Positions 44,642 through 61,706 are shown, counted from the first letter of the stretch. The stretch: DNA of 64,000 nt from Pseudomonadota bacterium (GCA_049324535.1 JBMOOG010000020.1:287-64286), one strand, 5' to 3'. Made by a program: numbers and translations. Notes: generated by a model from the sequence alone, not told the origin.

Positions 44642-44812
44642 GGGTCTGCTCTCCGGCGGCCGGAACCGTTGCCCCGGGCCTTCCCGAGCGACTATGCCCC
44701 ACGGCCCGGCGTTGCACAGCCCCCGCGACGCGCGGTGTGCAGAAGCGCGCGTCGAGGCCAGCCGTCGCGGCGGACCCCAGACCGGATCGCCGACCCGAAG
44801 ACGGGCCGGATA

Positions 44813-44828
44813 TTCGCGTTGCGGATAG
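44813..44828 (+). promoter_or_regulatory. Box TTCGCGTTGCGGATAG (copy 1), 74 nt upstream of the 44903 start
   Basis: Identical to 49092-49107. See the related copies at 49053-49068 (minus strand) and 61691-61706. Confidence 0.55.
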
Positions 44829-44902
44829 CGGCAGGCCGCCCCGCGCGGTATCGCACCGGCAGAGATGGGCCGGATCCCGGCCCGAACCGGATGGAGACTG
44901 AC

Positions 44903-45412
44903 ATGAAGACGACGCTCTTTCTGCGCCTTGCGCTGGCCACGGCCTGCGCGGTCGGCGCCGCGGCAGGAGCCCAGGCCAAGATCGTGGCCGAACCCCAGAT
45001 GGCCGCCTTCTGCACCGGAGAGGCCGCAGCCAAGCTCGGCACCCGGCCCCGCAAAATCCTGACGCTCCCGGTGGAGAAGAAGAACGGGAAATACGTCGTC
45101 TACGGCCAGAGCCCGGCCGAGGGTCCGGATGTGACCACCTTCGAATGCAAGTTCGGAGCGGACCGGAAGTATCAGGGCATCAAGATCACCGGACGCCCCG
45201 CGAAGAGCGGTTCGGCCGACAACGGCGGGGCACCGCCGGCGGCGATGGCGCGGTGCCGCGCCATGGTCGGCGTCCCCGCCAAGGTCGAGACCGTCAGCCC
45301 GCTGCGTCCCGGCTACACCGAGATCATCTTGCGCGAGAACGCCAGCGGCCGACGCATCGCCTGCACCGCCTCGGATGCGGGTGAGATCACGGACTGGGTC
45401 GAGCTGAACTGA
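44903..45412 (+). CDS. Secreted protein of unknown function with two modules of about 55 aa, each containing a Cys pair
   Basis: Signal peptide MKTTLFLRLALATACAVGAAAGAQA. The modules are FCTGE...FECKF and RCRAM...IACTA. The start is 44903 or 44891. Confidence 0.7.
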   Translation: MKTTLFLRLALATACAVGAAAGAQAKIVAEPQMAAFCTGEAAAKLGTRPRKILTLPVEKKNGKYVVYGQSPAEGPDVTTFECKFGADRKYQGIKITGRPAKSGSADNGGAPPAAMARCRAMVGVPAKVETVSPLRPGYTEIILRENASGRRIACTASDAGEITDWVELN

Positions 45413-45471
45413 TCCCGGCGTTCGGGTGGCGAGTGACAGGGGCGGCGCCTACGGGTGCCGCCCCGTTTCGT

Positions 45472-46260
45472 TCAGGGCGTGCAATCCTCGGGCGTCAGCC
45501 GGATCAGCCAGTACCTGAAGGCGGGATTGTCCTCATAGGCGCCGGGGCCTTCGTAGCGCACCGGCGGCAGGCCAAGCCGCGCCATGTCGGCAATCGAGAA
45601 CCCCCAGCCAAGCTGGGCGCCGCTGAGGCGATTGTCGAAGCGCGGCCCGACGCCACAGATGGCGAAGGTGTCGGCGATGCCGATCCCGTCATAGAATGTC
45701 TTCTCCTCGACGATCAGCGCCTGAAGCGTTCCCACCGCCTCGTCGAGCCAGGCCTCGAGGTCCATGGGGTTGCCTGCATCGTCCTTCATGTTCGTCGCCT
45801 GGTCCGCGACCTGGCCACGCAGGTAGTCGCGCAAGGGCAGGCCCGGCTGGTCGGCGGTGATCTGGAACCCGCGGTCGTTGCCATGCCAGCCGAGGAAGGC
45901 GTTCTCGCGGATGGTGATGCTGTTGGCGCCGGGCGCGATGAAGTCGGCGCAGGAGGAAAAGCAGCCGACCTCGATGGTCAGGTCGGGCTTGAGGTCGGCG
46001 ATGATCGAACCGATGAAGATGCCGGCCTTGGTGTCGCCACCACCGGAATTGACGATCATCTTCGTGACCTGCCCGCGCGGCAGGTGGCGCACGGCATTGC
46101 TGAGCTTCGTGAGGCCCGTCGCGTTGATGCCGCCGATGTAGGTCAGCGTCTCCCCCTCGACCTTGACGATGGGGTCCGGGTCGGTCGAGGGCTTCACGGG
46201 CACCCAGTCGGCGAAGGCGGGGCTCGCGGCCAAGAGGGCCGCGATGGCAAGGGCGCGCAT
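45472..46260 (-). CDS. Periplasmic ClpP/crotonase-fold protein (COG3904-like)
   Basis: Signal peptide MRALAIAALLAASPAFA. KMIVNSGGGDTKAGIFIG and GCFSSCADFI resemble the Clp-fold periplasmic family. The ATG at 46260 overlaps the CPBP stop. Confidence 0.65.
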   Translation of the reverse strand: MRALAIAALLAASPAFADWVPVKPSTDPDPIVKVEGETLTYIGGINATGLTKLSNAVRHLPRGQVTKMIVNSGGGDTKAGIFIGSIIADLKPDLTIEVGCFSSCADFIAPGANSITIRENAFLGWHGNDRGFQITADQPGLPLRDYLRGQVADQATNMKDDAGNPMDLEAWLDEAVGTLQALIVEEKTFYDGIGIADTFAICGVGPRFDNRLSGAQLGWGFSIADMARLGLPPVRYEGPGAYEDNPAFRYWLIRLTPEDCTP

Positions 46261-47027
46261 CAGGCATAGTCCTTTGCGTAGTCGCGCCCGGCATGGCGCA
46301 GGAAGAAGAGACCCAGAAGGAACAGGGGCAGGCTCATCACGACGCTGCCATAGTCGCCAAGGGCGGTGGCGGCTGACGCGGCATCCGCCGCAGGCGCTCC
46401 ACCGGCTGCGACCAGGAAGGTGCCTGCATCCCAAAGCCCATGCAGCACGATCCCGGTCCAGAGCGAGCCCGTCCGCAGCCGCACGGCGGCGAGGAACAGC
46501 CCCGAGAGGAACGCGGCGCCGGCCTGCACCACCGCCCCGCGCAGGTCGCCCGTCAGGAACACGTTCAGCACATGCATCGCCCCGAAGATCAGCGACGACC
46601 CGAGGATCGCCGCCCAGATCTCGAAGCTGCGGTGAAGGCCGCGCAGCCAGACGCCGCGGAACATCACCTCCTCGGACCAGCCGACCATCAGCGTGTTGGC
46701 CAGGATGAACAGGCTCACGCTTGCCGGTGGAAACCCGGAAGCCAGGACATTGGCCGCGAAGAGCGCAAGGAACAGAAGCCAGGGCCAGATCACCCGCAGC
46801 GTGCCGCGCTGCGGGCCTTGCGCCAGACCGACATCCCGCCACCAGCGGAACGCCACCACGACGATCAGCAGGAACAGGCTCGCCGCCGCCAGCGAGGGCG
46901 AAAGCCCATGCTTCACGAGGTCGAGAAGGTCGATCCCCCCGGGTCCGGTTCCCGCGATCTGGATGCCGGAATTGATCGCCTGCCAGACCAGATAGACCCC
47001 AAGCGCCACCAGTGCCGTGAGTTTCAT
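46260..47027 (-). CDS. CPBP-family (CAAX/Abi) intramembrane glutamic endopeptidase
   Basis: SEEVMFRG (EExxxR), FGAMHVLN (FxxxH) and HGLWD (HxxxD) motifs in a polytopic protein. Confidence 0.85.
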   Translation of the reverse strand: MKLTALVALGVYLVWQAINSGIQIAGTGPGGIDLLDLVKHGLSPSLAAASLFLLIVVVAFRWWRDVGLAQGPQRGTLRVIWPWLLFLALFAANVLASGFPPASVSLFILANTLMVGWSEEVMFRGVWLRGLHRSFEIWAAILGSSLIFGAMHVLNVFLTGDLRGAVVQAGAAFLSGLFLAAVRLRTGSLWTGIVLHGLWDAGTFLVAAGGAPAADAASAATALGDYGSVVMSLPLFLLGLFFLRHAGRDYAKDYA

Positions 47028-49000
47028 TTCGACCAGGTCCCGTCGGGCAGAAGGAAGGCCGGCGTCAGCGCCTGCGCGCAGGCGGCATCGAACGGCGCTT
47101 CGGGGTTTTCAAGGAAGGCCGCGCCAATGTCCTTGGCGCATTGCGAGAACGCGAGCGTGCCGTGGCCGGATTCCGGGAAGAACACCAGCCGCCCTTTCGG
47201 CAGCGACGACACCATCAAGGCCCCCCAGCTGGGCGCCGTCTGGGTATCGAAGGCGCCCTGCATGACCAGCGTCGGTATCGGGGCCGTCACCGGGTCGTGG
47301 AAGCCCGCGCGCGGCTGCGGCACGAATTCCTTGCACAGGTCGAAGAAGGTCGCGTTCACGACGGATTCGTAGACATTGGTCAGGCTCGCCGGCCAGCCGA
47401 ATTCGGATTGCAGACGGGCACTGACCGCCGCGGCCCCGGCCGGAGAGTTGATGTCCATGTCCTCCTGACAGGCGAACATCTGGGTCTGGAAGCCTTCCAG
47501 CAGAACCCGGTCGAGCGCGGCGTTGTCCGCGCCCACGCGGGCAAAGACCTGCGCCACCTGCCCGTCGTCCAGCATCCCGGCAAGGGTCTCGAGCCGCGCC
47601 AGCGTCTCGCCCGAGAACTGACGCGCCAGCATGGCCAAGAGAGCCCCCCGTGTCGGCTGTCCCGACCGCAGGCGCAGGTAGTCGGCGGCAAAGCCCACCC
47701 GGGCGGGCTGGTCGGGCAGCGCCAGGGCCGCGGCCTTGAGCGCGGCCTCGAATTCATCCACCAGCCCCGCCCCGCTGGCGACGGCGGCGCGGTCGCCCTC
47801 GAGCCGCGCCAGCATCGCCTCGACCGCCTTGTCGTTCTCGCGCCCCGCCATGGCGAGCCGCAGGGCGGTTTCGGCGAAGGCCATCGCATCGGCATCAAGG
47901 CCCGTGAGCCCGGCAAGCGCGCTTTCCGGCGTGGGGTGCAGGGCGATCTGGCCGCTGGTCAGGGCATTGAGCGTCGTCATGTCGCCCGCCTCGAGTTCGG
48001 CCACGATCTTCGGCACATAGCCGGTCAGCCCCTGCCGCTGCGCCTTCCAGTTGTTGCGGCCATCGACCAGCTCATAGAGCGCGCCGGGGTTGACCTGACC
48101 GGGACCGGGCGGCCCGGCGGCGGGATCCACCCCGGCAAAGAGGGCCCAGAAGCGGTTCCTCAGATCCGGGTAGGCGGCGGCGCATTTCGCATCGGCGGTG
48201 CAGGCGTCGAAGATGGACTGGATCGCCTCGGCATGCGGCAGGGCCAGCGTGTCGTAGATCGGCACCTGTACGGGGGCGACCGAGTCCAGCACCACCGACC
48301 GCAGGCCTTCGGGGGCCGAGCGCATCACTTCCTGCCCGAGCTTCGTGCCGTAGGAGATGCCGTAGATGTTGTAGGTGGGATAGCCCAGCGTGTGCATCAC
48401 CGCCGACACGTCCTGCGCGTTCTGCCAGGTGTTGATCTTGGTGATGTCGGCGCCCGAGGCGGCGATCTCGTCCAGACAGGCGCGGGTCATCGTGCGCGTC
48501 AGCGCCACGGTGTCCCCGATGCCCTGCGTTGCCTTGACCAGAGCCTCGGGGTCGGACGCGAGCGTGTCGAAGCAGCGCGACTCGGCCGCGGCCGACTGGT
48601 CCACCCCGCGCTGGTCGAAGGCCACCACATCGCGGCGGGTGCGCAGGTGTTCGAAGAAGGTGGTGGTCAGCGAGGCGCGCGCCACGATGCCGACACCGGG
48701 GCCGCCGTGCAGGTGCACCACGGCGTCGGGGGCGGGCGACAGCGAGCGCGACTTGAAGATCATGAAGGCCAGGTCGATCCGCCGGCCTTCGGGGTTCGCG
48801 TGATCCTCGGGCACGGAGACCTTGCCGCAGGCCACCGTGCGGCCTTCGATCTCGAACTGTGCCAGCGGGCGCGGGCAGGCGGTGGCGACCACCGGATAGC
48901 GGGGATCGGCCCCGCCCGCGGCGATGACCGGAAACAGCGGGTCGGCAGGCGGCGGCGCGGTCAGCGCCAGCACGAAGGCAACGATCTGGTCGGGGGTCAT
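47024..49000 (-). CDS. Alpha/beta hydrolase 1 (tripeptidyl-aminopeptidase/TAP-like) with a large helical insert
   Basis: HLHGGPG, GISYG (GxSxG). C-terminal TAP-like region (PTLVMQGAFDTQT...SGHG). Stop overlaps the CPBP start (ATGA). Paralogue of 49162..51102. Confidence 0.8.
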   Translation of the reverse strand: MTPDQIVAFVLALTAPPPADPLFPVIAAGGADPRYPVVATACPRPLAQFEIEGRTVACGKVSVPEDHANPEGRRIDLAFMIFKSRSLSPAPDAVVHLHGGPGVGIVARASLTTTFFEHLRTRRDVVAFDQRGVDQSAAAESRCFDTLASDPEALVKATQGIGDTVALTRTMTRACLDEIAASGADITKINTWQNAQDVSAVMHTLGYPTYNIYGISYGTKLGQEVMRSAPEGLRSVVLDSVAPVQVPIYDTLALPHAEAIQSIFDACTADAKCAAAYPDLRNRFWALFAGVDPAAGPPGPGQVNPGALYELVDGRNNWKAQRQGLTGYVPKIVAELEAGDMTTLNALTSGQIALHPTPESALAGLTGLDADAMAFAETALRLAMAGRENDKAVEAMLARLEGDRAAVASGAGLVDEFEAALKAAALALPDQPARVGFAADYLRLRSGQPTRGALLAMLARQFSGETLARLETLAGMLDDGQVAQVFARVGADNAALDRVLLEGFQTQMFACQEDMDINSPAGAAAVSARLQSEFGWPASLTNVYESVVNATFFDLCKEFVPQPRAGFHDPVTAPIPTLVMQGAFDTQTAPSWGALMVSSLPKGRLVFFPESGHGTLAFSQCAKDIGAAFLENPEAPFDAACAQALTPAFLLPDGTWSK

Positions 49001-49048
49001 GGGCGGCTTTCCTGTGCACTCGCGCCAACTTCCGGCTTTTCCCGCGCC

Positions 49049-49111
49049 GCGCCTATCCGGTTCGCGAAATCCGGCGGCCGAGGGCCCGCGCTTCGCGTTG
49101 CGGATAGGCGC
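49049..49111. promoter_or_regulatory. Inverted repeat GCGCCTATCCG...CGGATAGGCGC carrying two facing copies of the TTCGCG-N3-CGGATAG box
   Basis: The 11-bp perfect arms are at 49049-49059 and 49101-49111. The repeat is centred at 49080; the midpoint between the two divergent start codons (49000 and 49162) is 49081. Confidence 0.6.
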
Positions 49112-49161
49112 ACATCAGGAACCTGCTACACCGTTCGCACCACCGCACCGGAGCCCGCACC

Positions 49162-51102
49162 ATGACCCCTGACGAGATCGTCGCCGCCGTCATGGCGCTT
49201 GTGGCTGGCACCGCCGACCCATCGGCCTTTGCCACCATCAAGGCCGGAGGCGGCGATCCGCGCTATCCCGTGACGGTCGAGGCCTGCCCCCGCCCCCTGC
49301 CAGCAGGGGAAATCGAGGGCCAGACGGTGATCTGCGGCCGCGTCGAGGTGCCCGAGGTGCATGGCAAGGAGGACAGCCGGCGGATCGGGCTGGCCTTCGC
49401 CGTGCTGAAGGCGCGCACCCAGAGCCCGGCCCCCGACCCGGTGGTCTATCTGCACGGCGGCCCCGGCGGCGGTGCGGTCAGGGATCTCTGGTCGATCGTG
49501 GTACCGATCTTCGACCAGTTCCGCGCCCGCCGCGACCTTGTGACCTTCGACCAGCGTGCGGCGGGCATTTCGTCGGACATGGTGAGCTGTCTCGATACGC
49601 TCGGGGCCAACATCGTGTCGCTCATGGCGCCGGGTGCCCTGCCGGAAGCCGCCTCGGAAGGGGAACTCGTCACCCGCTGCCTCGACGAGATCAAGGCGAA
49701 AAGCGGCGACATCACCGCCTACAACACCACCCAGAACACCTATGACACGCAGGCGCTGATGCGGGCGCTGGGCTATAAGGAATGGAACCTCTACGGCATT
49801 TCCTACGGCACCCAGCTGGCGCTCGAGGTGATGCGGTCCGCGCCCGAGGGCACGCGGTCGGTGGTGATCGACAGCGTCTTTCCGACCGACGTGAAGGGCT
49901 ATGACGAGAACATCAAGCCCTTGCAGGAGTCGATTCAGGCCACGCTCGACCAGTGCGCCGCCGATCCCGCCTGCGCCGCCGCCTATCCGGACCTTGAAGG
50001 AACGCTCGTCCGCGTGGCGGAGAAGCTCGCGGCAAACCCGATCCCGGCGGCGCGCGGCCGCGCCGAGATCACGCTCAAGGCGCTGATCGACCTGTTCGAC
50101 GGCCGCAACAGCTCGGGCGCCATCCCCCAGATCACCGCCCATATCCCGCTGATCCTGACCGAGCTGGAGAGGGGCGAGACCAAGACCTGGGACATGCTCA
50201 CCTCGGGTGGCACGCGCAAGGCGCCGACCACCGCCGAGCGTCTGGCCGCTGCCACACTGACGCCCGAGCAGAGGGCGCTGGCGACGCTGCTTCTGGATCA
50301 TGCCGGCGCGCAGCGCAGCGATGATGCGGCGATGGCGGCGGCCCTGTCGGCGCTGTCGGACTCGCTGGGGCGCAGCCAGTCCGGCGCCTCGGACCTCGCC
50401 ACCCGTTTCGATGCCGAGGTCACGCGGTCGATCACCGCGACCCGCTCGCGCGAGGCGATGCTCGACTTCGTCGTGGCCTACGCCGGCCTTGCGACGCAGA
50501 CCCCGTCGCGCGAGGCGCTCCGCGCTCTGGTCGAACCCCGTCTGCCCGCCGCCGACCTGCCGCAGATCCTTGCCCTGATCGACGTGATGACCGATGCGGA
50601 TGTGCGCGCGGTCTTTGCCGCCGTGTCGGGCGATACGCGCAAGGCCTTTGGCCCGATGGTGGGCTTCTTCGACCTGATGGTGATCGCCTGTCAGGAACAG
50701 CTGCCGTTCAACAGCCGCGAGGGCTACGACGCCTACAACGCCACGCTGAAATGGCCGTGGCTCACGCAGTCGAACAAGGCCGACACCACAATGTACGACA
50801 TCTGCCAGCTGTTGCCGCCCGCGCCCCGGCCCGAATTCCTGACGCCGGTCGTCAGCGACATTCCCACCATGGTGGTCTATGGACTGAACGATACGCAGAC
50901 CTCGTCGGCGGATGCCCGCCACGCGGCCGAAACGCTGTCGCGGTCGCAGGTCATCGAAGTGCCCGAGGCCGGGCATGGCGCGATCATCTTCTCGCAATGC
51001 GTGAAGGATATCGGCATGGCCTTCATCGAACGGCCGGAGACGCCGGTGGACACCACCTGCCTGGCCAGCCTGAAGCCGAAATTCGTGCTGCCGCCGGGCT
51101 AG
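49162..51102 (+). CDS. Alpha/beta hydrolase 2 (TAP-like), paralogue of 47024..49000
   Basis: Same architecture and collinear similarity (MTPDEIVA..., DPRYPV, YLHGGPG, GISYG, AGHG). The first 24 nt of the two CDS match at 20/24 positions. Confidence 0.8.
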   Translation: MTPDEIVAAVMALVAGTADPSAFATIKAGGGDPRYPVTVEACPRPLPAGEIEGQTVICGRVEVPEVHGKEDSRRIGLAFAVLKARTQSPAPDPVVYLHGGPGGGAVRDLWSIVVPIFDQFRARRDLVTFDQRAAGISSDMVSCLDTLGANIVSLMAPGALPEAASEGELVTRCLDEIKAKSGDITAYNTTQNTYDTQALMRALGYKEWNLYGISYGTQLALEVMRSAPEGTRSVVIDSVFPTDVKGYDENIKPLQESIQATLDQCAADPACAAAYPDLEGTLVRVAEKLAANPIPAARGRAEITLKALIDLFDGRNSSGAIPQITAHIPLILTELERGETKTWDMLTSGGTRKAPTTAERLAAATLTPEQRALATLLLDHAGAQRSDDAAMAAALSALSDSLGRSQSGASDLATRFDAEVTRSITATRSREAMLDFVVAYAGLATQTPSREALRALVEPRLPAADLPQILALIDVMTDADVRAVFAAVSGDTRKAFGPMVGFFDLMVIACQEQLPFNSREGYDAYNATLKWPWLTQSNKADTTMYDICQLLPPAPRPEFLTPVVSDIPTMVVYGLNDTQTSSADARHAAETLSRSQVIEVPEAGHGAIIFSQCVKDIGMAFIERPETPVDTTCLASLKPKFVLPPG

Positions 51103-51309
51103 GCTTCCGTCTCGGGGATGCAGGGAGGCATCACCGCCCCCGGGCACACCCGTCACCGGGGTCAGGGGTCAGGACTGACCGCGGAACGGGGCAGACCGCC
51201 CATGGCCCGACCTGTGCCGCCGGATCTCTTGCCATCCGTCCGCCCGCCGTGCTCGCCGACGGATCCGCCGGACGCGGGTAACGGCAGTCCGACCTGTGGC
51301 CGGGCCGTC

Positions 51310-52245
51310 TCAGGGGCTGGGCACGATGAAGTCCGGAACGATGCCCGATGCCTCGATGAAGGGTGCCGTGTCCCGACCGGCAAACAGCCCGTGATCGGTG
51401 ACCAGCACGCTGCGGCAGCCCGCCGCCGCCCCGCCCAGCACGTCGGTGTGCAGCGTGTCCCCCACCATCGCCAGCCGGTCGGGCGCAAGGCCGGTGCGGG
51501 CGATGCCCTCGGCAAAGGCCTCGGGGAAGGGCTTGCCGAACCAGTGCACCTCGACCCCCGGCAGCGCATCGAGCAGGTCGTGGCCGAAGAGCCCGGGTTC
51601 CAGCGTCAAGCCGCCTTCGCGCGGGGCCACGAGGTCGGGGTTGGCGATGACGAGGGGCCGCGGGCGGCGCTCGAGCGCCGCTACGAGCCGCCTCTGAAGC
51701 GCGGTCGACCAGCGCGCGGTGGACAGGAACAGGATGGCATCCGCCCGGTCCAGACGTGACGGATCGGCCAGCGCGTCGAGCACGCGGGCGGGTATGTCGT
51801 CGAACGTGTCACCGGCGGCCGCGATGGCGGCCCAGGTGGCGCCGGGGGCGATGGTCTCCAGCCGCGCCACGGCGACATCGCGCGAGGCCACCACCTCATC
51901 GGCCGTGAAGTCGAAGCCGAGGCGGTGATACTTGGCCAGGAGCTGCGGGCGGGTGTAGCTGGCCGCGTTGGTCAGGACTGCCAGCCGCTTGCCCCGCGCG
52001 CGCAGGGCGGCCATGCGCTCGACCGCGCCGGGTATCGCGGTTTCGCCCACGTTCAGCACCCCGAAGGCATCGAGCAGGAAGCCGTCCACCCGGTCGGCGA
52101 CCGCCTCGAGGCCCGGCAGGTTCAGCGCCCGCGCCGGATAGCGGGCGAAGGGCAGACGGGAGCGGATCCGCTCGTAGCGGGCAAAGGCCGAGGGCGCGTC
52201 GGACAGAAGGTCCCCTGCCCCGGCTTCGAGCGAGACATCAGACAC
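51310..52245 (-). CDS. HAD-superfamily hydrolase, subfamily IIA-like
   Basis: FLLDAFGVLN (DxxG motif I), LTNAAS, GKP, VGDTLHTDV. Confidence 0.75.
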   Translation of the reverse strand: MSDVSLEAGAGDLLSDAPSAFARYERIRSRLPFARYPARALNLPGLEAVADRVDGFLLDAFGVLNVGETAIPGAVERMAALRARGKRLAVLTNAASYTRPQLLAKYHRLGFDFTADEVVASRDVAVARLETIAPGATWAAIAAAGDTFDDIPARVLDALADPSRLDRADAILFLSTARWSTALQRRLVAALERRPRPLVIANPDLVAPREGGLTLEPGLFGHDLLDALPGVEVHWFGKPFPEAFAEGIARTGLAPDRLAMVGDTLHTDVLGGAAAGCRSVLVTDHGLFAGRDTAPFIEASGIVPDFIVPSP

Positions 52246-53005
52246 TGGTGAACCCGCCTTCCACCATCAAGAGCGCCCCGTTCACCATGGCCGAGGCGTC
52301 CGAGGCAAGGTAGAGCGCGGCATCCGCCACCTCGACCGGCTCGGCAAAGCGGCGGGCGGGCGTGGCGGCCCGGAACGGATCCCCCTTTTCCGGCGCACCC
52401 CAGACCTCGCGGCCCATGGGCGTCATCACCACGGTCGGGCAGATCGCATTGACCTGCACGTTGTGCCGCGCCCATTCCGCGCAGAGCGACTTGGTCAGCG
52501 CGTTCAGCCCGCCCTTGGACGCCGCATAGGCCGCATGGTCATCCAGCGCGATCACCCCGGTCTGGCTCGAGATGTTGATGATCTTGCCCCAGCGTTGGGC
52601 GATCATCGCCGGCGCAAGCGTGCGGGCCGTAAGGAAGGGTGCGCGAAGGTTCACCGCCATCATCCGGTCCCAGTCGGTGGTGGCGTAGTCGAGCGCCGGG
52701 CCGACCAGCGCGATCCCGGCCGAGTTCACCAGGATGTCGATCGTGCCCCATTCGGCAAGCGCCCGCCGGCAGGCCTCGACCGGCTCGGTCGGGCTTTCCA
52801 TCTCGGCCACCAGCGTCAGGCAGCGCCGACCCTGCGCCTGCACGGCATCGGCCGTGGCCGCAAGATCGGCCGTGTCGCGGCCCAGCGCGACGATGTCGGC
52901 GCCGGCTTCGGCGAAGACTCGGGCGATCTCGGCCCCGATGCCCTTGGAGGCCCCCGTGATCAGGGCCTTGCGGCCCGTCAGCGAAAAGCGGTCCTGCCAG
53001 CCCAT
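52238..53005 (-). CDS. SDR-family oxidoreductase
   Basis: ITGASKGIG (TGxxxGxG), NSAG, and YAASK (YxxxK). Confidence 0.85.
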   Translation of the reverse strand: MGWQDRFSLTGRKALITGASKGIGAEIARVFAEAGADIVALGRDTADLAATADAVQAQGRRCLTLVAEMESPTEPVEACRRALAEWGTIDILVNSAGIALVGPALDYATTDWDRMMAVNLRAPFLTARTLAPAMIAQRWGKIINISSQTGVIALDDHAAYAASKGGLNALTKSLCAEWARHNVQVNAICPTVVMTPMGREVWGAPEKGDPFRAATPARRFAEPVEVADAALYLASDASAMVNGALLMVEGGFTSV

Positions 53006-53008
53006 CGG

Positions 53009-53569: not shown

Positions 53570-54909
53570 GTTCCCACCTTGGTCTGTGCGGTCCGTGGAA
53601 GGGCGGCGGCGGCTGCCGGCTCAAGCAGCCCGACCTCGTCCAGAAGATCAAGCAGCGTGTAGCGGCTGCGCAGGAAGCGGGCCTTCAGGATCGTGCGGTA
53701 GAGGTAGGCCGGATCGACGCCGATCTCGGCCGCCTCGACCGGCGCCCCGGCACGGGCGAGGTGATCGGCCATGCGCGCCGGCGCCCAGAGCTGCGCGCGC
53801 AACCGCCCGACCACCTCGGGCCAGACCGTGCGCAGCCGCGCCAGCCGCGCCTGAAGCTCGGACCCCTCGACATGCTTGGCGCGGGTCTCTGCGATGGCAC
53901 GCTCGGCGATTTCGCCGGGGCCGAACCGGTCGCGGATCTCGGCCTCCTTGGCGGGCAGTCGCGGCGCGGCCGCGGCACGACGCGCCGGGTCGAGCGACGG
54001 AAGATCCTGCGACAGGAGCCAGTCATACATCCGCAGAACCGCCATGGCGCCGACCGCGACGCAGGCCCCGTGGCTGACCCGCTCGCCGCCATGGTGCAGG
54101 TCGTCCATTTCCCAAAGATGCGCGATCTGGTGGTCTGCCCCCGACGCGGGGCGCGAGGAACCATGCGCCTCCATCGCCAGACCGACCAGCGTCAGACCGA
54201 GGAACAACCCCTCGACCGCCGCGGGGTCGCCCGCCGCAATGCGGTCGGGCTGCGACAGCCACCCCGCCAGCCCGTCCTGCACCATCGGCCAGGCCACGCC
54301 GTCGATGGCTTCGATGCCCAGCGCGTCGGCCAGAATCCAGTCACCCCCCGCCGGCACCTTTCCCGCAAGGTCGCCGTAGCCCCAGCCCGTCATCTCGGCC
54401 GGCGCGGCGGCGATCACATCGAGGTCGGCAAGCAGGACCCTGGCCGGTCGGCAGGGGATGGTCTTCTTGAAACCCTTCTCCGACAGCGGCGCCCCGGCCG
54501 AGGTGTAGCCGTCCATGCTGGCCGCCGTGGCCACGCACATGTAGGGAATGCCGGCCGTGAAGGCCGCGTGCTTGACGAGGTCGTTCATCACGCCCGAGCC
54601 GACGGCCACCGGCGTTTCCCCCGGACGCAGCGCGGCGCGCAGGGAATCGGCCAGCTCCACCGTGGGCTTCGGCCGGGGCCGGGCCGCAATCACGTGACGG
54701 CGCGTCGGAAGGCCCGCCGCCGCAAGCGCGGCTTCCGCCGCCTCGCCCGCCGCGCCCCAGCCGCGGTCGTCGGCCATCAGCACCACGGGACCGCCGAAAT
54801 GGCGGGCGTAAAGCGCCCCAGCCTGTGCCAGCACCCCTCGGCCGATCACGACCTCGGCCACATTGGCCGAGCGCGCGACCGCCTCGCGGATCCGATCCTG
54901 CCCGCTCAT
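53566..54909 (-). CDS. sn-glycerol-1-phosphate dehydrogenase-like (AraM/EgsA, iron-ADH/DHQS superfamily)
   Basis: [21 protein letters not shown], and the HQIAHLWE...SHGACVA metal-site pattern. The ATG at 54909 overlaps the upstream stop (ATGA). Confidence 0.65.
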
Positions 54910-55967
54910 GCCGCCACTCCGCCCGAGGCCAGCGTGCGCCCGTCGGCCGCGAAATGATGCTGGCGCTGCACCGGCAGATCCAGCCCGATCTCGGCCCCCT
55001 GATCCAGCGTGGTGTCGCCGTCGGCCCGGGCCACCAGCGTCTGACCGCCCGGCAGGCGGACATAGAGATAGGCGTCGCCCCCCAACGTCTCGGCAAGGGT
55101 CACGGTTGCGCCAAGCTGCCCCTGCCCCGCCGGGCGCAGCACCAGATGTTCCGGCCGGATCCCGAGCTTCACCGTGCCCGGCGGAGCCGCGCCCAGAGCC
55201 GTGCCATTGACCGTCGCGTGGCCGTCGCGCAGTTCGACGGCCAGGACGTTCATCGACGGCGCCCCGATGAAGCCGGCGACGAATTCGCTTGCCGGACGGT
55301 GATAGAGCTCCATCGGCGCGCCGACCTGCTCGATGCGGCCGGCGTTCAGCACCACGATCTTGTCGGCCATGGTCATCGCCTCGACCTGGTCGTGGGTGAC
55401 GTAGATCATCGTGGCCTTCAGATCGCGGTGCAACGCCTCCAGCTCCACCCGCATCTGGACGCGCAGCTTGGCGTCGAGGTTCGACAGCGGTTCGTCGAAC
55501 AGGAAGACCTTCGGCTCCTTCACGATGGCGCGGCCGATTGCGACACGCTGCCGCTGCCCGCCGGACAGTTGCCCCGGCTTGCGATCGAGATAGGGTTCCA
55601 GTTGCAGGATGCGGGCGGCCTCGGCGATGCGGCGCTTGCGCTCGGCTTCGGGGAAGTTGTTGACCTTCATTCCGAAATCCATGTTCTCGCGCACCGTCAT
55701 GTGCGGATAGAGCGCATAGGACTGGAAGACCATCGCCACGTCCCGTTCGGACGGCGCGGCACGGGTCACGTCGCGGTCCCCGATGTGGATGGTGCCGCCG
55801 GAAATCTCCTCGAGCCCGGCGATCGAGCGCAGAAGCGTAGACTTGCCGCAGCCGGAGGGCCCGACGAAGACCACGAATTCGCCATCCTCGATAGTCAGCG
55901 ACACCGAATGCAGCGCCTGTGCCGCGCCGTAGTGCTTGTTGACCTGGCTCAGCCGGACCTCGGCCAT
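54906..55967 (-). CDS. Sugar ABC transporter ATP-binding protein (MalK/UgpC-like)
   Basis: GPSGCGKST, LSGGQRQRVAIGRA, FLFDEPLSNLD, plus a C-terminal TOBE-like region. Start at ATG 55967. Confidence 0.9.
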   Translation of the reverse strand: MAEVRLSQVNKHYGAAQALHSVSLTIEDGEFVVFVGPSGCGKSTLLRSIAGLEEISGGTIHIGDRDVTRAAPSERDVAMVFQSYALYPHMTVRENMDFGMKVNNFPEAERKRRIAEAARILQLEPYLDRKPGQLSGGQRQRVAIGRAIVKEPKVFLFDEPLSNLDAKLRVQMRVELEALHRDLKATMIYVTHDQVEAMTMADKIVVLNAGRIEQVGAPMELYHRPASEFVAGFIGAPSMNVLAVELRDGHATVNGTALGAAPPGTVKLGIRPEHLVLRPAGQGQLGATVTLAETLGGDAYLYVRLPGGQTLVARADGDTTLDQGAEIGLDLPVQRQHHFAADGRTLASGGVAA

Positions 55968-56007
55968 CGGCGCGTTCTCCCCCTGGTGCGGCGCGGTCCA
56001 CTTTTTC

Positions 56008-56065
56008 GTTGACTCGCTGCCGAAGTCATACATTTATATGTATGGCGTTACAAATGCATGTCAAC
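56008..56065. promoter_or_regulatory. AT-rich divergent control region with nested palindromes
   Basis: Outer GTTGAC (56008) / GTCAAC (56060). Inner CATACAT-TTAT-ATGTATG at 56027-56044. TTACAAATGCATG at 56048-56060. Confidence 0.55.
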
Positions 56066-56093
56066 TGCGAAACGCCTACCAGGGAGGACCACC

Positions 56094-57434
56094 ATGAAAT
56101 TCAGAAGCTGTGCGAGTGCGATAGCGCTTGCTTCGGCGGCCGCGCTGGCGCCGTCCGGACAGGCGGCAGCCTGGTCGCTCGAGGAGGCGGCCAAACCCTA
56201 TGCCGGAACCACGCTCGACGTGATCTTCCTCGACCGTCCGGGCTACAACGCGGCCAAGCAGATGCTGCCCGAGTTCGAACAGAAGACCGGCATCAAGGTG
56301 AACATCACCACGGTGCCCTACGAGAACGCGCTGGGCGAACAGGTCCGCGATTTCGTCGCGGGCGGCGATCTCGACATCGCGCTGATCGACCTGGTCTGGA
56401 TCGGCAACTTCGCCGAAAACGGCTGGATCGAACCGATCGAGACCTTCACCAAGAACCCGGAGCTGGCCGACCCCGATCTCGACATGGCCGACTTCTTCCC
56501 GCTGGTGGTCAATGCCTTCGGCGGCTGGAACGGCACGACCTACGGCCTGCCCTTCGACAACTATTCGGGTCTGCTGTTCTACAACTCCTGCATGCTGAAG
56601 GACGCCGGCTTCGACGGCCCGCCCGAGACCTGGCAGGACGTGATGGATAAGTATGGCCCGGCCCTGACCAAGGACGGCAAATACGCCTACGCGCTGCAGT
56701 CGAAGCGCAACGAGACCCAGTCGGCCGACAGCTTTGCCCGGTTCCTGTGGCCGTTCGGCGGATCGTTCCTGACCAAGGACTTCAAGTCGAACCTCAACTC
56801 GCCGGAAAGCCAGGCCGGGCTGAACTTCCGGCAGGATCTGATGAAGTTCATGCCGCCGGGCATCGTCGCCTATGACCATGCCGAGGCGGTGAACGCGCTG
56901 GCGCAGGGCGACGTGGCCTTCATCACCGAATGGTCGGCCTTCTATTCGACGCTGATGGACCCGAACACGTCGAAGGTGGCCGACTGCCTGGCCGTCGCGC
57001 CGGAACCGAAGGGACCGGCCGGCCGCAAGCCCGCGCTGGGCGGCTTCTCGCTTGCCGTCGCGACCCAGGCCGATGATGCGGAAAAGGCCGCGGGCTGGCT
57101 CTTCATCCAGTGGGTGACCTCGAAGGCCAACGCCGGGAAGTATCTCGAACTGGGCGGCGTGCCCGCGCGCCAGTCGGCCTATGCCGACCCGGCTCTGGCC
57201 GAGAAGTACAAGTTCATCCCGGCGCTGGTCGAAAGCTGGCAGGACGGCGTTCCGGAATTCCGGCCGCGCTTCGCCGAATGGCCCGAGATCACCGAGATCG
57301 TGCAGGAATGGGGCACCAAGATGATGCTGGGAGAAGTCAGCGTCGAAGAAGGTGCCAGGACCATCGGCGCCAAGATGGAAGACGTGCTGAAGGCCGCCGG
57401 CTACTACGACGGCAAGAAGCCGCTGGTGCAATAG
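56094..57434 (+). CDS. Sugar ABC transporter substrate-binding protein (family 1)
   Basis: Signal peptide MKFRSCASAIALASAAALAPSGQAAA. AGGGAGG SD upstream. SBP_bac_1-like body. Confidence 0.85.
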   Translation: MKFRSCASAIALASAAALAPSGQAAAWSLEEAAKPYAGTTLDVIFLDRPGYNAAKQMLPEFEQKTGIKVNITTVPYENALGEQVRDFVAGGDLDIALIDLVWIGNFAENGWIEPIETFTKNPELADPDLDMADFFPLVVNAFGGWNGTTYGLPFDNYSGLLFYNSCMLKDAGFDGPPETWQDVMDKYGPALTKDGKYAYALQSKRNETQSADSFARFLWPFGGSFLTKDFKSNLNSPESQAGLNFRQDLMKFMPPGIVAYDHAEAVNALAQGDVAFITEWSAFYSTLMDPNTSKVADCLAVAPEPKGPAGRKPALGGFSLAVATQADDAEKAAGWLFIQWVTSKANAGKYLELGGVPARQSAYADPALAEKYKFIPALVESWQDGVPEFRPRFAEWPEITEIVQEWGTKMMLGEVSVEEGARTIGAKMEDVLKAAGYYDGKKPLVQ

Positions 57435-57523
57435 ACGGATCTCCCGAGGGGTTGTGACGACCCCGATCCCTGTCCCTCCGGTCGCCGCATGGCCGGGGGG
57501 ACCTCTTCCCGACGGAGCCCGCC

Positions 57524-58402
57524 ATGATCGCCCGCGTCAAGCGCCGCACCATCCTTGCCTTTCTCGGCCCGGCCGTCCTGGCACTTGCCCTCGTCGGGAT
57601 CGCCCCACTGCTCTATGCGGTCTGGAAAAGCCTGCACTACTTCAACCTGACCAAGCTCGCGCAGCAGAAGTTCGTCGGTCTGGACAATTACGCCTCGGTG
57701 CTGAGCGATCCGGTCTTCTGGCAGGCCATGGGGCGGACGGCGCTGCTCTTCGCCGTGGCGGTGCCGATCGAGATCGTGCTCGGCCTTGTCATCGCGCTGG
57801 TGCTGCACCGGCCGGGCCTCGGCTTCTGGAAGACGCTGACCCGGCTGACGCTGGTGCTGCCCATGGCCACGACCTATGCCGTGGTGGGCCTTCTGGCGCA
57901 GGTGATGCTGAACCAGAAATACGGTGTCGTGAACCAGATTCTGGGCTGGCTCGGCGTGGATGCGATCAATTTTATCGGCGACCCTACAAATGCATTCATC
58001 GCCGTCGTCCTGTGGGACATCTGGCAGTGGACACCCTTCGTCGCGCTGGTCCTGCTGGCGGGACTGTCCACCGTTCCGCCCGAGATCGAAGAGGCCGCGA
58101 GGCTCGAGACGAAATCCGGCTGGACCGTCCTGCGCCATGTCCAGCTGCCCTTCCTGGTGCCCAGCCTTGTCGCCGTGCTGATCCTGCGCACCGCCGACAC
58201 GCTGAAGCTCTTCGACATGCCCTTCACTATGACACGCGGCGGGCCCGGCTCGGCCACCGAGTTCATCGCCGTCCTGATCGAACGGGTCGGCAACCGCCAG
58301 TTCGACATCGGCATGGCCGCGGCGCAGTCGATCATCATGCTGGCGATCACCATCGTGCTTGCCCGCATCTACATCCGGCTGTTCTACCGCGAGGTCCGCT
58401 GA
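57524..58402 (+). CDS. Sugar ABC transporter permease
   Basis: 6-TM MalF/UgpA-like protein. EAA-type loop (EIEEAARLETKSGWTVLRHVQLP). Confidence 0.88.
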   Translation: MIARVKRRTILAFLGPAVLALALVGIAPLLYAVWKSLHYFNLTKLAQQKFVGLDNYASVLSDPVFWQAMGRTALLFAVAVPIEIVLGLVIALVLHRPGLGFWKTLTRLTLVLPMATTYAVVGLLAQVMLNQKYGVVNQILGWLGVDAINFIGDPTNAFIAVVLWDIWQWTPFVALVLLAGLSTVPPEIEEAARLETKSGWTVLRHVQLPFLVPSLVAVLILRTADTLKLFDMPFTMTRGGPGSATEFIAVLIERVGNRQFDIGMAAAQSIIMLAITIVLARIYIRLFYREVR

Positions 58403-58403
58403 C

Positions 58404-59231
58404 ATGGCCGCCCCTGTCCGCCGCCGTCATCTGTGGGGCGAAGGCGCCCTGCTGCTTGTGATCGGGCTGTTCTGCGTCTTTCCCTTCTACTGGATGGTGA
58501 CGACCAGCCTGAAGACCCAGGTCGTCGCGCTGGAATCGCCTCCGGCCTGGTGGTTCACGCCGACTCTCGCGAACTACTGGGAGGTGCTGTTCGTGGACAA
58601 GGTCGGCCCGGCCCTGATCAACTCGATCATCGTCGCGGTCTGCACCACGGCCCTTGCCGTCGGTCTGGGAACGCCGGCCGCCTATGCGCTGGCCCGTTTC
58701 GAGTTCCGGGGCAAGCGCGACCTGTGGTTCTGGTTCATCACCAACCGCTTCGTCTCGCCGGTCGTCCTGGCCTTTCCGGTGTTCCTGATCGCGCGGGAGA
58801 CCGGCCTGCGCGACACGCATCTGGCGCTGATCCTCATGTATCTGACCTTCACCCTGCCGATCGTGATCTGGATCTGCACCGATCAGTTCCGCTCGATCCC
58901 GACCGAGCTCGACGAGGCCGCGACGCTCGAGGGCGCGAGCCAGTGGCGCATCTTCCGGTCGATCTGCCTGCCGCTGGCCATGCCGGGGGTGGCGGTCAGC
59001 GCCATCCTTTCCTTCATCTTCTCCTGGAACGAGCTGCTTTTCGCCTACATCCTGGCGCCCAAGGCCGCCAAGACCGCCCCCGCGATGGCCGTGACCTTCA
59101 TGGAGGGGTATGACGTGCCCTACGGCAAGATCATGGCGACCTCGACGCTGATCGTCGTTCCCGTATTGATCTTTGCCCTGCTGGCCTCGAAACACCTCGT
59201 GCGGGGCCTGACGATGGGCGCGGTGAAATAG
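58404..59231 (+). CDS. Sugar ABC transporter permease
   Basis: MalG/UgpE-like protein. EAA loop (ELDEAATLEGASQWRIFRSICLP). Start at ATG 58404. Confidence 0.88.
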   Translation: MAAPVRRRHLWGEGALLLVIGLFCVFPFYWMVTTSLKTQVVALESPPAWWFTPTLANYWEVLFVDKVGPALINSIIVAVCTTALAVGLGTPAAYALARFEFRGKRDLWFWFITNRFVSPVVLAFPVFLIARETGLRDTHLALILMYLTFTLPIVIWICTDQFRSIPTELDEAATLEGASQWRIFRSICLPLAMPGVAVSAILSFIFSWNELLFAYILAPKAAKTAPAMAVTFMEGYDVPYGKIMATSTLIVVPVLIFALLASKHLVRGLTMGAVK

Positions 59232-59238
59232 GGGATCC

Positions 59239-60210
59239 ATGGCGCGTGCACCGAAGCTTCCGCAGATCGACACCGAAGAGCGCTTCCTCGCGCAGGTCGC
59301 CTGGGCCTACCATGTCGAAGGGCTGACGCAGGAAAAGGTCGCCGAAAAGCTGGGCGCCACGCGGCTGCGCGTGAACAAGGCCCTGTCCGAGGCCCGGACG
59401 CGCGGGTTGGTGCGGATCACCTTCAACACCGCCTTCGCCGCCTGCGCCGAGCTGGAGGCCGCGCTGTGCGCCCGCTTCGGCGTCCGCAAGGCCTATGTCG
59501 CTCCGACGCCGACGGACCAGCGCGACGTCCAGATGATCACCGGCGCGGCTCTGGGCAACCTTCTGTCCGAGGTGCTGGCCGACCCGAAGGTGCGGCTCTT
59601 CGGCATGTCCTGGGGCGGCACGCTGAACATCGCGACCCGCTTCGTCGCGGCGATGGAACGCCCGGATCTGGAGGTGATCTCGGTCATGGGCGGGCTGACC
59701 CGCGGCTCCGATCTCAACAGCTTCGAGATCACCACGCGGCTGGCCGATCTGATCGGGTCCCAGCACAGCTACTTCACCGCGCCGCTTTACGCCGGCAGCC
59801 GGGAAAGCCGCGACACGATCATGCAGCTCGACGTGTTCCGCGACATCCTGGCCAAGCTGAGAGCGGTCGATGCGCTGGCGATGGCCGCCGGCGACATCTC
59901 GAAGCGGTCGCTTCTGATGCGGGACGGACTGCCTTCCGACACCACGATGGAGGAACTGGTCGCGCTGGGCGCGGTGGGCGACGTGCTCGGCACCGTGATC
60001 GATGCCGAGGGGCGTCCGATCGCGCATCCGATCAACGAACGGGTCATCGGCATCGGACTCGACGACCTTGGCCCGATCCCGAACGTCATCCTGGCCGCGG
60101 GCGGGCCGCACAAGGTGGCGATCGTGCGCGCCGTGCTGAGGCGGGGCGTCGTGAACACGCTGGTCACCGACGAGGCCACCGCCCGCGCGCTGCTGGAGCG
60201 CAACGGATGA
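59239..60210 (+). CDS. SorC/DeoR-family sugar-binding transcriptional regulator
   Basis: N-terminal HTH (LAQVAWAYHVEGLTQEKVAEKLGATRLRVNKALSEA) plus a sugar-phosphate-binding domain. Confidence 0.85.
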   Translation: MARAPKLPQIDTEERFLAQVAWAYHVEGLTQEKVAEKLGATRLRVNKALSEARTRGLVRITFNTAFAACAELEAALCARFGVRKAYVAPTPTDQRDVQMITGAALGNLLSEVLADPKVRLFGMSWGGTLNIATRFVAAMERPDLEVISVMGGLTRGSDLNSFEITTRLADLIGSQHSYFTAPLYAGSRESRDTIMQLDVFRDILAKLRAVDALAMAAGDISKRSLLMRDGLPSDTTMEELVALGAVGDVLGTVIDAEGRPIAHPINERVIGIGLDDLGPIPNVILAAGGPHKVAIVRAVLRRGVVNTLVTDEATARALLERNG

Positions 60211-61658
60211 CCTTTAACGTCGGCATCGACCTGGGCACCTCGGGCATCAAGGCGGTGCTGATCGAGGATCTGGCCCGCATCGTCGCGGTCGCGCCCGAGC
60301 CGATCGCGGTCAGCCGTCCGCAGGTCGGCTGGAGCGAGCAGGATGCCGACCTGTGGGTGGCGACCGTGTTTTCCTGTCTCGACCGTCTGGCCGCCGAGGC
60401 CCCGCGCGCGATGGCCGCCGTGCGCGGGATCGGACTGTCGGGACAGATGCTCTGCGCGTTGATCCTCGACGCGGATCTCAGGCCACTGCGCCCGGCCATG
60501 CTGTGGAACGACCAGCGCGCGATCGCCGAATGCGCCGAGCTTCTGGCCGCCGTGCCCGACATCGGCCGGCGGACGAACGGCACGCCCGACCCCGGCATCA
60601 CCGCGCCCAAGCTGATGTGGCTGCGCAGGCACGAGCCCGCGCTGATGGACCGGGCGCGGATGCTCATGCTGACCAAGGACTATGTCCGCCTCGCCCTGAC
60701 CGGAGAGGTCGCCACCGAGCCTTCGGATGCGGGCGGCACGCAGCTTCTCGATGTGGCGTCGGGGCGCTGGGATCCGGCGCTCTGTGCCGCCGTGGGCTGG
60801 GATCCGGCCCATCTGCCGCCGGTCCTCGACAGTTGGGCCGAGGCCGGGCGGCTCCGGCCCGAGCTTCTGGCCCGTTGGGGGATGACGGGGCCGGTCGCGG
60901 TCGCCGCGGGCGCGGGCGACAACATGGGATCGACGCTGGGCGCGGGCGGCGCGCGACCGGGCGATGCGGTGCTGACCGTCGGCACGTCGGGGGTGGCCTG
61001 CATCGTGGACGCGGCCTTCCATCCCGGCCCCGAGCGCGCGATCCTGACCTCGGCCCATGTCGTGCCCGGGGTTTTCCTGTCGATGGGCGTGGTGATGTCG
61101 GCCACCGCGAGCCTCGACTGGGTGGGCCAGCTGACCGGGCGCCGGGTGCCCGAGCTCGATGCGGAAGCCGCCGCCTGGGTCGCCGCCCGGGGGCCGGCCG
61201 CCGCGCCGGTGTTCCTGCCCTGCCTGACCGGCATCCGCACGCCCCTGAACCGGCCCGACCTGACCGGGCGCATGGCCGGCCTTCACCCCGGCGTCACGCC
61301 GGCGATGCTCGCCTATGCCACGATGGAAGGCGTGGCCTTCCAGTTCGCCGATTGCGTCGCCGCGCAGGTCGCGGTCGGTGTCAGGCCCGAGCGCTTCACC
61401 GTGGTGGGCGGCGGAACGCGCAGCGTGCTCTGGCTGCAACTGATGGCCAGCGCGCTTGACCGACCGCTCGGGCTGATCGAGGGCGCCGACATGGCCGGGC
61501 CGCGCGGGGCCGCACGACTGGCCGCCGTCGCGGCCGGGGCCCCGGTGGCGATCCTGTCCGAGCGCGTCCCCGCGATCCGCGAGGTTGCGCCCGACCGCCG
61601 TCTGGCCGAGGCCCTGGCCCCGCGCCACGCCGCCGTGGCCGCGCTGGCGGCGGGCTGA
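60207..61658 (+). CDS. FGGY-family carbohydrate kinase (xylulokinase-like)
   Basis: VGIDLGTSGIKAVL, LWNDQR, GAGDNMGS, VGGGTRS. The ATG overlaps the regulator stop (ATGA). Confidence 0.85.
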   Translation: MTFNVGIDLGTSGIKAVLIEDLARIVAVAPEPIAVSRPQVGWSEQDADLWVATVFSCLDRLAAEAPRAMAAVRGIGLSGQMLCALILDADLRPLRPAMLWNDQRAIAECAELLAAVPDIGRRTNGTPDPGITAPKLMWLRRHEPALMDRARMLMLTKDYVRLALTGEVATEPSDAGGTQLLDVASGRWDPALCAAVGWDPAHLPPVLDSWAEAGRLRPELLARWGMTGPVAVAAGAGDNMGSTLGAGGARPGDAVLTVGTSGVACIVDAAFHPGPERAILTSAHVVPGVFLSMGVVMSATASLDWVGQLTGRRVPELDAEAAAWVAARGPAAAPVFLPCLTGIRTPLNRPDLTGRMAGLHPGVTPAMLAYATMEGVAFQFADCVAAQVAVGVRPERFTVVGGGTRSVLWLQLMASALDRPLGLIEGADMAGPRGAARLAAVAAGAPVAILSERVPAIREVAPDRRLAEALAPRHAAVAALAAG

Positions 61659-61690
61659 GCTGCGGCCCGAACCGGACGATGACGCGGGCC

Positions 61691-61706
61691 TTCGCGTTTC
61701 GGATAG
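61691..61706 (+). promoter_or_regulatory. Box TTCGCGTTTCGGATAG (copy 4), 81 nt upstream of the 61788 start
   Basis: 15/16 identical to 44813-44828 and 49092-49107. A second CGGATAG lies at 61731-61737. Confidence 0.5.

Follow-up and report, generated by a model that had tools for sequence, protein, structure and literature searches.

Transcription factors of the AraC/XylS family that have two domains, XylS and AraC among them, bind as a rule to two sites in tandem, and at araI of the araBAD operon the activator site of AraC overlaps the −35 element, with the regulator gene divergent from its target. The marbox, in its class II placement, likewise overlaps the −35 element of weak promoters. 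XylS and CphR recognise the consensus TGCA-N6-GGNTA, the promoter-proximal copy of which lies at −35 to −49 (PMC4514859, PMC6205950), and AraC/XylS proteins bound there are activators in the characterised cases (PMC6205950). The marbox of MarA, SoxS and Rob is a single asymmetric site of 15–20 bp contacted by one double helix-turn-helix domain, and the layout of the AraC half-sites has been described as well (PMC4514859). Here we analyse an asymmetric box of approximately 20 bp which precedes four transcription units in a stretch of 64,000 bases (hereafter, the window) from a 64,928-bp contig of a metagenome-assembled genome (MAG), the closest named relative of which is Paragemmobacter straminiformis. 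The box is a real, evolutionarily conserved promoter element, and we consider it likely that it serves as a class II activator site for a protein of the AraC/XylS family, controlling an envelope and secretome regulon that has not been described. The element is of an ordinary kind and reveals no new regulatory principle, and the regulon appears to be undescribed: the literature yielded no description of the motif or the regulon in Rhodobacter, and, to our knowledge, none of the established alphaproteobacterial motifs (LexA, CtrA, FnrL, Irr/RirA, Zur, EcfG and RpoH) fits the box.

The similarities to the XylS/BenR/CphR operators, such as that of Pm, extend from the site to the candidate regulator. 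Both sites consist of two sub-motifs with N6 spacing, the proximal one being GGNTA in the known operators and GGATA in the box, and the proximal XylS-type site, at approximately −35 to −49, overlaps the −35 element, as the box is predicted to do. XylS-type regulators also share with the candidate an N-terminal domain followed by a C-terminal double helix-turn-helix and are often encoded divergently from their targets. By contrast, the distal sub-motif is TGCA in the former and TTCG(C) in the latter; XylS promoters carry two repeats, whereas box promoters have one site with no conserved repeat 21 bp upstream; and XylS targets an aromatic catabolic pathway rather than secreted and membrane proteins. 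The marbox resembles the box in being a single asymmetric site scattered over many unlinked promoters, but its consensus, GCAC-N7-(T)AAA, is unrelated, and MarA and SoxS are single-domain proteins, whereas the candidate has an N-terminal domain of approximately 200 residues. The araI/araBAD arrangement has in common with the box system the site overlapping the −35 element and the divergent regulator gene, but AraC relies on two tandem half-sites and DNA looping, whereas box promoters lack a conserved tandem half-site and divergent boxes lie anywhere from 13 to 138 nt apart. Since no tandem second site is present, the box would be classified as an AraC-type class II site outside the XylS two-repeat subtype, that is, as a single-site, MarA-like element.

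The box and the transcription units it precedes

A preliminary description, made from the window sequence, had reported four copies of a 16-nt box, each intergenic, oriented towards the gene that it precedes and ending 52–81 nt before the start codon. All four are located as reported, and the distances from the end of the box to the start codon are 74, 54, 81 and 52 nt for boxes 1 to 4, respectively. The sites were scored with a 21-column position weight matrix (PWM) trained on 57 sites from other genomes only, the window being excluded. The four boxes score 27.2–31.6 bits, the next position in the window reaches 10.5 bits and the best score in any of 30 shuffles is 15.9 bits; therefore, the window contains exactly four sites, in agreement with the initial impression that there are no further full copies, and the minus-strand copy, which matches in only 13 of 16 positions, is a full member, equal to the other boxes. 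The boxes and the genes downstream of them are as follows:

44809–44829 (+): box 1, Cys-pair promoter; core 44813–44828, TTCGCGTTGCGGATAG; 31.6 bits
44903–45412 (+): Cys-pair gene ('cys170'), monocistronic, encoding a 169-aa secreted protein with a signal peptide and two Cys pairs
45472–49000 (−): three-gene operon (Pfam, NCBIfam)
45472–46263 (−): ClpP-fold secreted protein with a signal peptide, third gene of the operon
46260–47027 (−): CPBP/Rce1-like intramembrane protease, polytopic, second gene of the operon
47024–49000 (−): hydrolase 1, first gene of the operon
49052–49072 (−): box 4, hydrolase 1 operon; core 49053–49068, TTCGCGAACCGGATAG; 29.1 bits
49088–49108 (+): box 2, hydrolase 2; core 49092–49107, an exact copy of TTCGCGTTGCGGATAG; 27.2 bits
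49162–51102 (+): hydrolase 2, a 646-aa alpha/beta hydrolase with a TAP-like C-terminal domain (Pfam), paralogue of hydrolase 1
61687–61707 (+): box 3, PPC/SH3b gene; core 61691–61706, TTCGCGTTTCGGATAG; 30.6 bits
61788–62774 (+): PPC/SH3b gene, encoding a 328-aa secreted protein with a signal peptide (Pfam)

Boxes 2 and 4 are divergent and lie back to back, with 23 nt between them.

Alignment of 61 unique sites anchored on the box yields an asymmetric consensus of approximately 20 bp, G-N2-T-TTCGC-R-W-W-N-CGGATAG. Positions 1–5 (TTCGC) and 10–16 (CGGATAG) are near-invariant and the centre is variable; upstream of the 16-mer, information is confined to G at −4 and T at −1, which extends the site to its full length. 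The TTCG(C) and GGATA blocks are 10 bp, or one helical turn, apart (TTCG-N6-GGATA). Among the 61 sites, we found neither dyad nor direct-repeat symmetry within the box and no second or tandem repeat 5′ of it, there being no information at −45 to −5.

Two simpler statistics were discarded as evidence. Repetition of the 16-mer is by itself weak proof, because approximately 40 independent chance 16-mer pairs occur in the same window, the GC content of which is 70%. Similarly, the heptamer CGGATAG is enriched (14 copies observed versus 4 expected), but the copies lie mostly within genes. The CGGATA(G) half-copies noted earlier at 44807 and 61731 are present, but they are not kept in the orthologous promoters and are therefore probably fortuitous. 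A near-match, TTCGGTTTCCGGACAG, is found beside a tRNA gene at 27796–27811 (−); with 10.5 bits, it falls inside the shuffled range and is probably noise. A riboswitch or another RNA element of the 5′ untranslated region was also considered and rejected: an Rfam scan of the window returned three tRNAs only and no family at the box, and, depending on the site, the box precedes the start codon by 50 to 126 nt, whereas its distance to the −10 signal described below is fixed. The box is therefore tied to the promoter rather than to the transcript leader, and it is predicted to lie upstream of the transcription start.

Conservation of the box and apparent mobility of its target genes

In front of the orthologues of each of the four units, the box is unchanged or almost so, while the intergenic sequence on either side of it has diverged. 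The relatives that retain it include Gemmobacter/Paragemmobacter, Rhodobacter sp. CZR27, Rhodobacter ferrooxidans SW2, Rhodobacter sp. SY28-1 and Roseivivax isoporae. This phylogenetic footprint, which covers all four units, supports the earlier proposal of joint control of dispersed genes by a single trans-acting factor. Box 1 is found upstream of the Cys-pair orthologues in loci L003–L006, L093, L154, L160, L155 and L136, and the gene order of the hydrolase 1 operon is the same in L003–L006, L154 and L160. In an alignment of the intergenic region between hydrolases 1 and 2 from 7 genomes, the invariant elements are boxes 2 and 4, a short predicted −10 block and the ribosome-binding sites. 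The five-gene module, made up of the Cys-pair gene, the operon of hydrolase 1 and the gene for hydrolase 2, is kept in relatives in which all the flanking genes are different, and several of these flanks carry integrases or transposases; each unit of the module has its box in all of these relatives.

The PPC/SH3b gene has orthologues of 60–77% identity in Cereibacter, Rhodobacter, Gemmobacter and Tabrizicola. Box 3 occupies the same place upstream of the orthologues in L158, L159 and L173; it is weaker in L157 and is also present in L136. The homology between the window and L173, a close relative, covers only one segment:

61685–62973 (+): cassette of box 3 and the PPC/SH3b gene, matching L173 9899–11180 with 93.5% identity (blastn)

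The match extends from six bases before the box to approximately 200 bases past the gene, and all neighbours differ: in L173, the gene is located between a LysR-type regulator gene and a cluster of lipoprotein, S10 peptidase and hydrolase genes, not after a sugar kinase as in the window. Because the homology ends at the box on one side and at the gene on the other, the two would have moved jointly, and they behave, as judged from these homology limits, as a portable, small translocated promoter–gene cassette.

In relatives, the box also precedes genes that are not among its targets in the window. These are a pair encoding 95-aa and 150-aa secreted proteins; a gene for a lipoprotein of 102–106 aa; an operon with the gene for a 178-aa secreted protein in first position, which also encodes a MIP channel, a metallophosphoesterase and two further secreted proteins; genes for a second SH3b protein, another CPBP protease and an MscS-type channel; and a pair encoding a hydrolase and an S10 carboxypeptidase. 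Nearly all the products preceded by the box have a signal peptide or multiple membrane spans, the hydrolases being the exception. The content of the regulon suggests a role in remodelling of the cell envelope or of the secreted proteolytic apparatus.

Some copies of the island appear to be decaying, as judged from interrupted genes. In L003 (11368–14477), an IS21-type insertion (rve and IstB) interrupts the gene for the CPBP protease, and in L154 (13017–14993) hydrolase 1 is broken into pieces of 155 and 488 aa; the boxes are intact in both. A cluster encoding a protein of 167–194 aa, a PNPOx_N/GAF protein and an FAD_binding_4 oxidase is found near the island both in the window (38614–42087) and in P. 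straminiformis L004 (16391–19976). The side differs: in the window, the cluster is upstream, beyond cytochrome c and P-type ATPase genes, and in L004 it is directly 3′ of hydrolase 2, which points to local rearrangement. No DNA-binding domain was detected in the three proteins of this cluster.

Promoter geometry and the candidate regulator

Downstream of the box, the aligned promoters carry information only at G/T +20, A +22 (42 of 61 sites) and T +26 (32 of 61). The two most conserved positions of the sigma-70 −10 hexamer are the A at −11 and the T at −7, and A +22 and T +26 match them in our alignment, at a fixed distance from the box. If the pair is read in this way, the box would span approximately −48 to −33, as counted from the predicted start of transcription, and overlap the −35 hexamer by three bases. 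That hexamer, with ATAGSG or similar bases at −35 to −30, is unlike TTGACA, and a consensus scan of 44600–62900 revealed no sigma-70 consensus promoter. The predicted −10 elements in the window are as follows:

44849–44854 (+): predicted −10 TATCGC of the Cys-pair promoter, 20 nt 3′ of box 1
49027–49032 (−): predicted −10 GAAGTT of the hydrolase 1 operon, placed by the fixed distance from the box
49127–49132 (+): predicted weak −10 TACACC of hydrolase 2, placed by its position relative to the box
61726–61731 (+): predicted −10 TATCAC of the PPC/SH3b gene, at offset +20

The hexamer is one base closer to the box in some promoters, including those of PPC/SH3b and hydrolase 2 in the window. In the orthologue alignments, a conserved CACTGT block is seen for the promoter of the hydrolase 1 operon, and GTATCA is common to the window and L158 at the same offset upstream of PPC/SH3b, with ATAC nearby in L159 and L157.

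Genes of one AraC subfamily adjoin box-bearing promoters, mostly in divergent orientation to one of them, in at least 8 gene arrangements (L003, L005, L006, L154, L160–L162, L164, L155, L156, L158, L159, L165, L166, L168 and L169). In the Gemmobacter-type island (L003, L005, L006, L154, L160, L162 and L164), the AraC gene is located directly 3′ of hydrolase 2 and is divergent from the operon for the 95-aa and 150-aa proteins. In Rhodobacter sp. CZR27 (L155), it adjoins the Cys-pair homologue and an operon encoding the 178-aa and SH3b proteins, with a near-box upstream of the AraC gene itself; in R. ferrooxidans SW2 (L156), a hydrolase gene and an SH3b operon are nearby. It is divergent from the 178-aa/MIP operon in L158 and L165 and from the lipoprotein gene in Rhodobacter sp. 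SY28-1 and L168. Retrieval in either direction gave the same association. Of 13 metagenome loci fetched by AraC homology only, 9 contain sites (26 sites in 136 kb), and approximately 1.1 Mb of unrelated loci yielded only about four PWM matches beyond the one by which each locus had been chosen, in three loci (the SW2 relative, Roseivivax and a chance second match). Conversely, the R. isoporae locus (L136), fetched by DNA pattern only, has two divergent boxes, and grouped around them are the AraC gene, the PPC/SH3b gene and a homologue of the Cys-pair gene. This locus came from a scan of 185,579 species genomes with TTCGCGTTNCGGATAG, in which at least 120 matches were listed; among those listed, nearly all were single chance matches in unrelated phyla, the informative ones being L079, L093, L115 (the same contig as L156) and L136. 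The 27 matches to TTCGCGTTNCGGATAG in viral contigs were all single, as chance would predict, and gave no indication of a phage or mobile element.

The candidate contains an HTH_18 domain and, in its N-terminal part, a weak match to AraC_binding_2, and it scores below every NCBIfam equivalog cut-off, the best being AndR (111 bits versus 350). Solved structures among its relatives are of isolated DNA-binding domains only. The recognition helices, R249-S250-L251-Q252 and H299-L300-R302-F303, are invariant among homologues with overall identities of 39–75%, which fits the unchanged DNA motif. The candidates form two clades (L003/L156 versus L158/L165/L168/L136), with 36–40% identity between them and 53–90% within the second; both are associated with the same box.

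The sites, their conservation, the fixed spacing to a −10-like signal and the co-occurrence with one AraC subfamily are direct observations, and they can be brought together as follows. An AraC/XylS-family activator, for which we infer the linked subfamily to be the best candidate, would bind the asymmetric box, with the TTCG(C) and GGATA blocks each met by one of the two helix-turn-helix motifs of a single AraC-type domain. Bound at approximately −48 to −33, it would abut or overlap a very poor −35 element upstream of a weak sigma-70-type −10 element. With such elements, the promoters would show almost no activity of their own and would depend on recruitment of RNA polymerase by the activator, that is, on class II activation rather than on relief of repression. 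In the window, the Cys-pair gene, the hydrolase 1/CPBP/ClpP-fold operon, hydrolase 2 and the PPC/SH3b gene would be driven in this way, and, in relatives, the small secreted proteins, the lipoproteins, the second SH3b protein, the CPBP protease, the MscS-type channel and the MIP/metallophosphoesterase operon. Because the spacing between divergent boxes is so variable, each box appears to act alone.

Several points weigh against this interpretation. The window contains no gene of the AraC subfamily, so that the preliminary description was right to see no cognate regulator adjacent to the boxes; however, the window is nearly the whole of one 65-kb MAG contig, itself a fragment of the MAG, and the absence says little about the genome. 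No gene of the subfamily lies within 10 kb of the sites in P. straminiformis L004, L157 and L173, and no P. straminiformis protein is among the best 120 of 196 AraC homologues; in L173, the neighbouring regulator is of the LysR type. The class II placement is computational, with predicted transcription starts. Furthermore, the box is single and unrepeated, against the norm of two tandem sites for two-domain AraC proteins; a MarA-like single-site mode is unusual for AraC proteins with a ligand domain.

These absences would suit an alternative in which the box is read by another transcription factor encoded elsewhere, for instance the OmpR-type regulator at 35360–36031, which belongs to a two-component system 8 kb upstream of box 1, or the LysR-type protein of L173, the gene of which is divergent from the PPC/SH3b gene, and in which the linkage to AraC genes merely reflects a shared mobile island. 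We regard this as unlikely, though less so for the window itself, and it is the strongest of the competing explanations. Neither the two-component system nor the LysR gene recurs at other loci, whereas the AraC subfamily does so in several genera, including at the one locus retrieved by motif only, and the box is neither a direct repeat, as expected for OmpR-type proteins, nor a dyad, as expected for LysR-type and most dimeric regulators.

The preliminary description had offered either a regulator or an alternative sigma factor as the common factor; the former is favoured by the recurrent AraC linkage, and the latter fared poorly. As in the envelope-stress regulons of extracytoplasmic function (ECF) sigma factors, dispersed genes, mostly for envelope and exported proteins, share one upstream motif, and GGATAG lies near the −35 region, so that the box could be imagined as an extended −35 element. 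However, the −10 region shows just the generic sigma-70 A/T pair and no conserved ECF-type motif; the 20 nt between the end of GGATAG and the −10 hexamer are too many for a −35 element (the ECF spacer is 15–18 nt); TTCGC, at approximately −48 to −44, extends too far upstream, beyond the reach of sigma region 4; and the locus gene tables examined list neither a sigma nor an anti-sigma gene. A sigma factor as the reader of the box is thus highly improbable.

Equally improbable, in our assessment, is that the box is an operator at which the same AraC-type protein, or another factor, represses transcription until released by an inducer. Its overlap with the −35 element, where a bound protein can exclude RNA polymerase, speaks for repression and counts against activation, and the divergent orientation of the AraC gene to a box-bearing promoter would also permit autorepression. 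Yet there is no recognisable −35 hexamer that would serve RNA polymerase unaided, and no sigma-70-like promoter was detected; moreover, characterised AraC/XylS proteins bound at −35 to −49 activate (PMC6205950).

Finally, that the box is a chance repeat or a dispersed non-regulatory repeat of the repetitive extragenic palindromic (REP) or miniature inverted-repeat transposable element (MITE) type is effectively refuted by the PWM, the 7-genome alignment and the locus retrieval: chance 16-mer repeats are frequent in such a GC-rich window and the exact 16-mer occurs once each in many unrelated genomes, but the latter is the number expected by chance, and the box is kept at orthologous promoters across genera, always single, promoter-oriented and at a fixed distance to the −10 signal, with unrelated and unconserved flanks, a non-palindromic sequence and all four copies in 64 kb located in promoters towards a gene.

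Target products and genomic surroundings

That the box precedes genes for exported or envelope proteins holds for the Cys-pair, ClpP-like and PPC/SH3b proteins, which have signal peptides, and for the polytopic CPBP protein; for the two hydrolases, which had been included, export is uncertain. The N-terminus of both is short, uncharged and hydrophobic. The opening sequence, MTPD(Q/E)I(V/I)A, is conserved in the two enzymes and in orthologues out to R. ferrooxidans, and it is no classical signal peptide. Their closest solved relatives are mycobacterial Hip1/CaeA and proline iminopeptidases.

The Cys-pair protein belongs to no Pfam or NCBIfam family. Its AlphaFold model is confident (mean predicted local distance difference test score of 82) and comprises two tandem helix-plus-sheet domains, each a unit of a helix and four strands; fold searches with this model gave only weak BLIP-, DUF2874- and PepSY-like matches (E ~0.01, template modelling score 0.3–0.4). 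Because these matches are weak, a function as an inhibitor is only a guess. The pattern C-R-A...A-C-x-S/A-S-x-D-G is common to the second domain of the Cys-pair protein (44903–45412) and the 106-aa lipoprotein (L003 9469–9789), and the two thus appear to belong to a single small family of disulfide-bonded domains for which Pfam has no model. The convergent Cys-pair and ClpP-like genes are separated by one further element:

45439–45464 (no strand assigned): GC-rich hairpin, probably a bidirectional terminator

Housekeeping genes, for example, pgi, purM and rnd, are found in the left two thirds of the window. An OmpR-type response regulator and a 2CSK_N-type sensor kinase (35360–37439) adjoin a TctC-family receptor gene upstream of box 1; this two-component system is not conserved near boxes in other genomes. 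At the other end, the PPC/SH3b gene follows a cluster encoding a sugar ATP-binding cassette transporter, a SorC-type regulator and an FGGY kinase, and precedes a fragment of an IS110/IS902-family transposase (Transposase_20; 63502–63987, −), approximately 900 bp from the contig end, which is probably the repeat that broke the assembly after the PPC/SH3b gene. A pair of 41-nt inverted repeats, 88% complementary, flanks housekeeping genes and is located in intergenic regions 4.3 kb apart (9351–9391 and 13709–13749); the repeats consist of a CCCCCGGGGG hairpin core plus TATTTCGGCGAAGAAGAAGA, and two tandem 38-nt GC-rich repeats lie by the second arm (13728–13803). The pair looks like a REP-type intergenic repeat family.

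Taken as an AraC/XylS-type activator site, the box unites a CPBP protease, two Hip1-like hydrolases and a set of secreted proteins otherwise called hypothetical in one testable unit, with one operator, one candidate regulator and about a dozen target families in Gemmobacter, Rhodobacter, Cereibacter-like bacteria and Roseivivax. Tentatively, and with considerably less confidence than for the activator site itself, one may envisage an undescribed, laterally mobile exoproteome regulon in Paracoccaceae and Roseobacteraceae, in which target genes might travel with their own 20-bp site, as is clearest for PPC/SH3b; a two-domain AraC protein might act on a single unrepeated site; and Hip1-like hydrolases, CPBP proteases, BLIP/PepSY-like putative inhibitors, SH3b wall-binding proteins and channel proteins might take part in one envelope-remodelling response. 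The 20-bp matrix can be used for regulon annotation in Rhodobacterales, and the system would illustrate how a two-domain AraC protein can work from a single-site operator and how a promoter and its gene can move together as a cassette.

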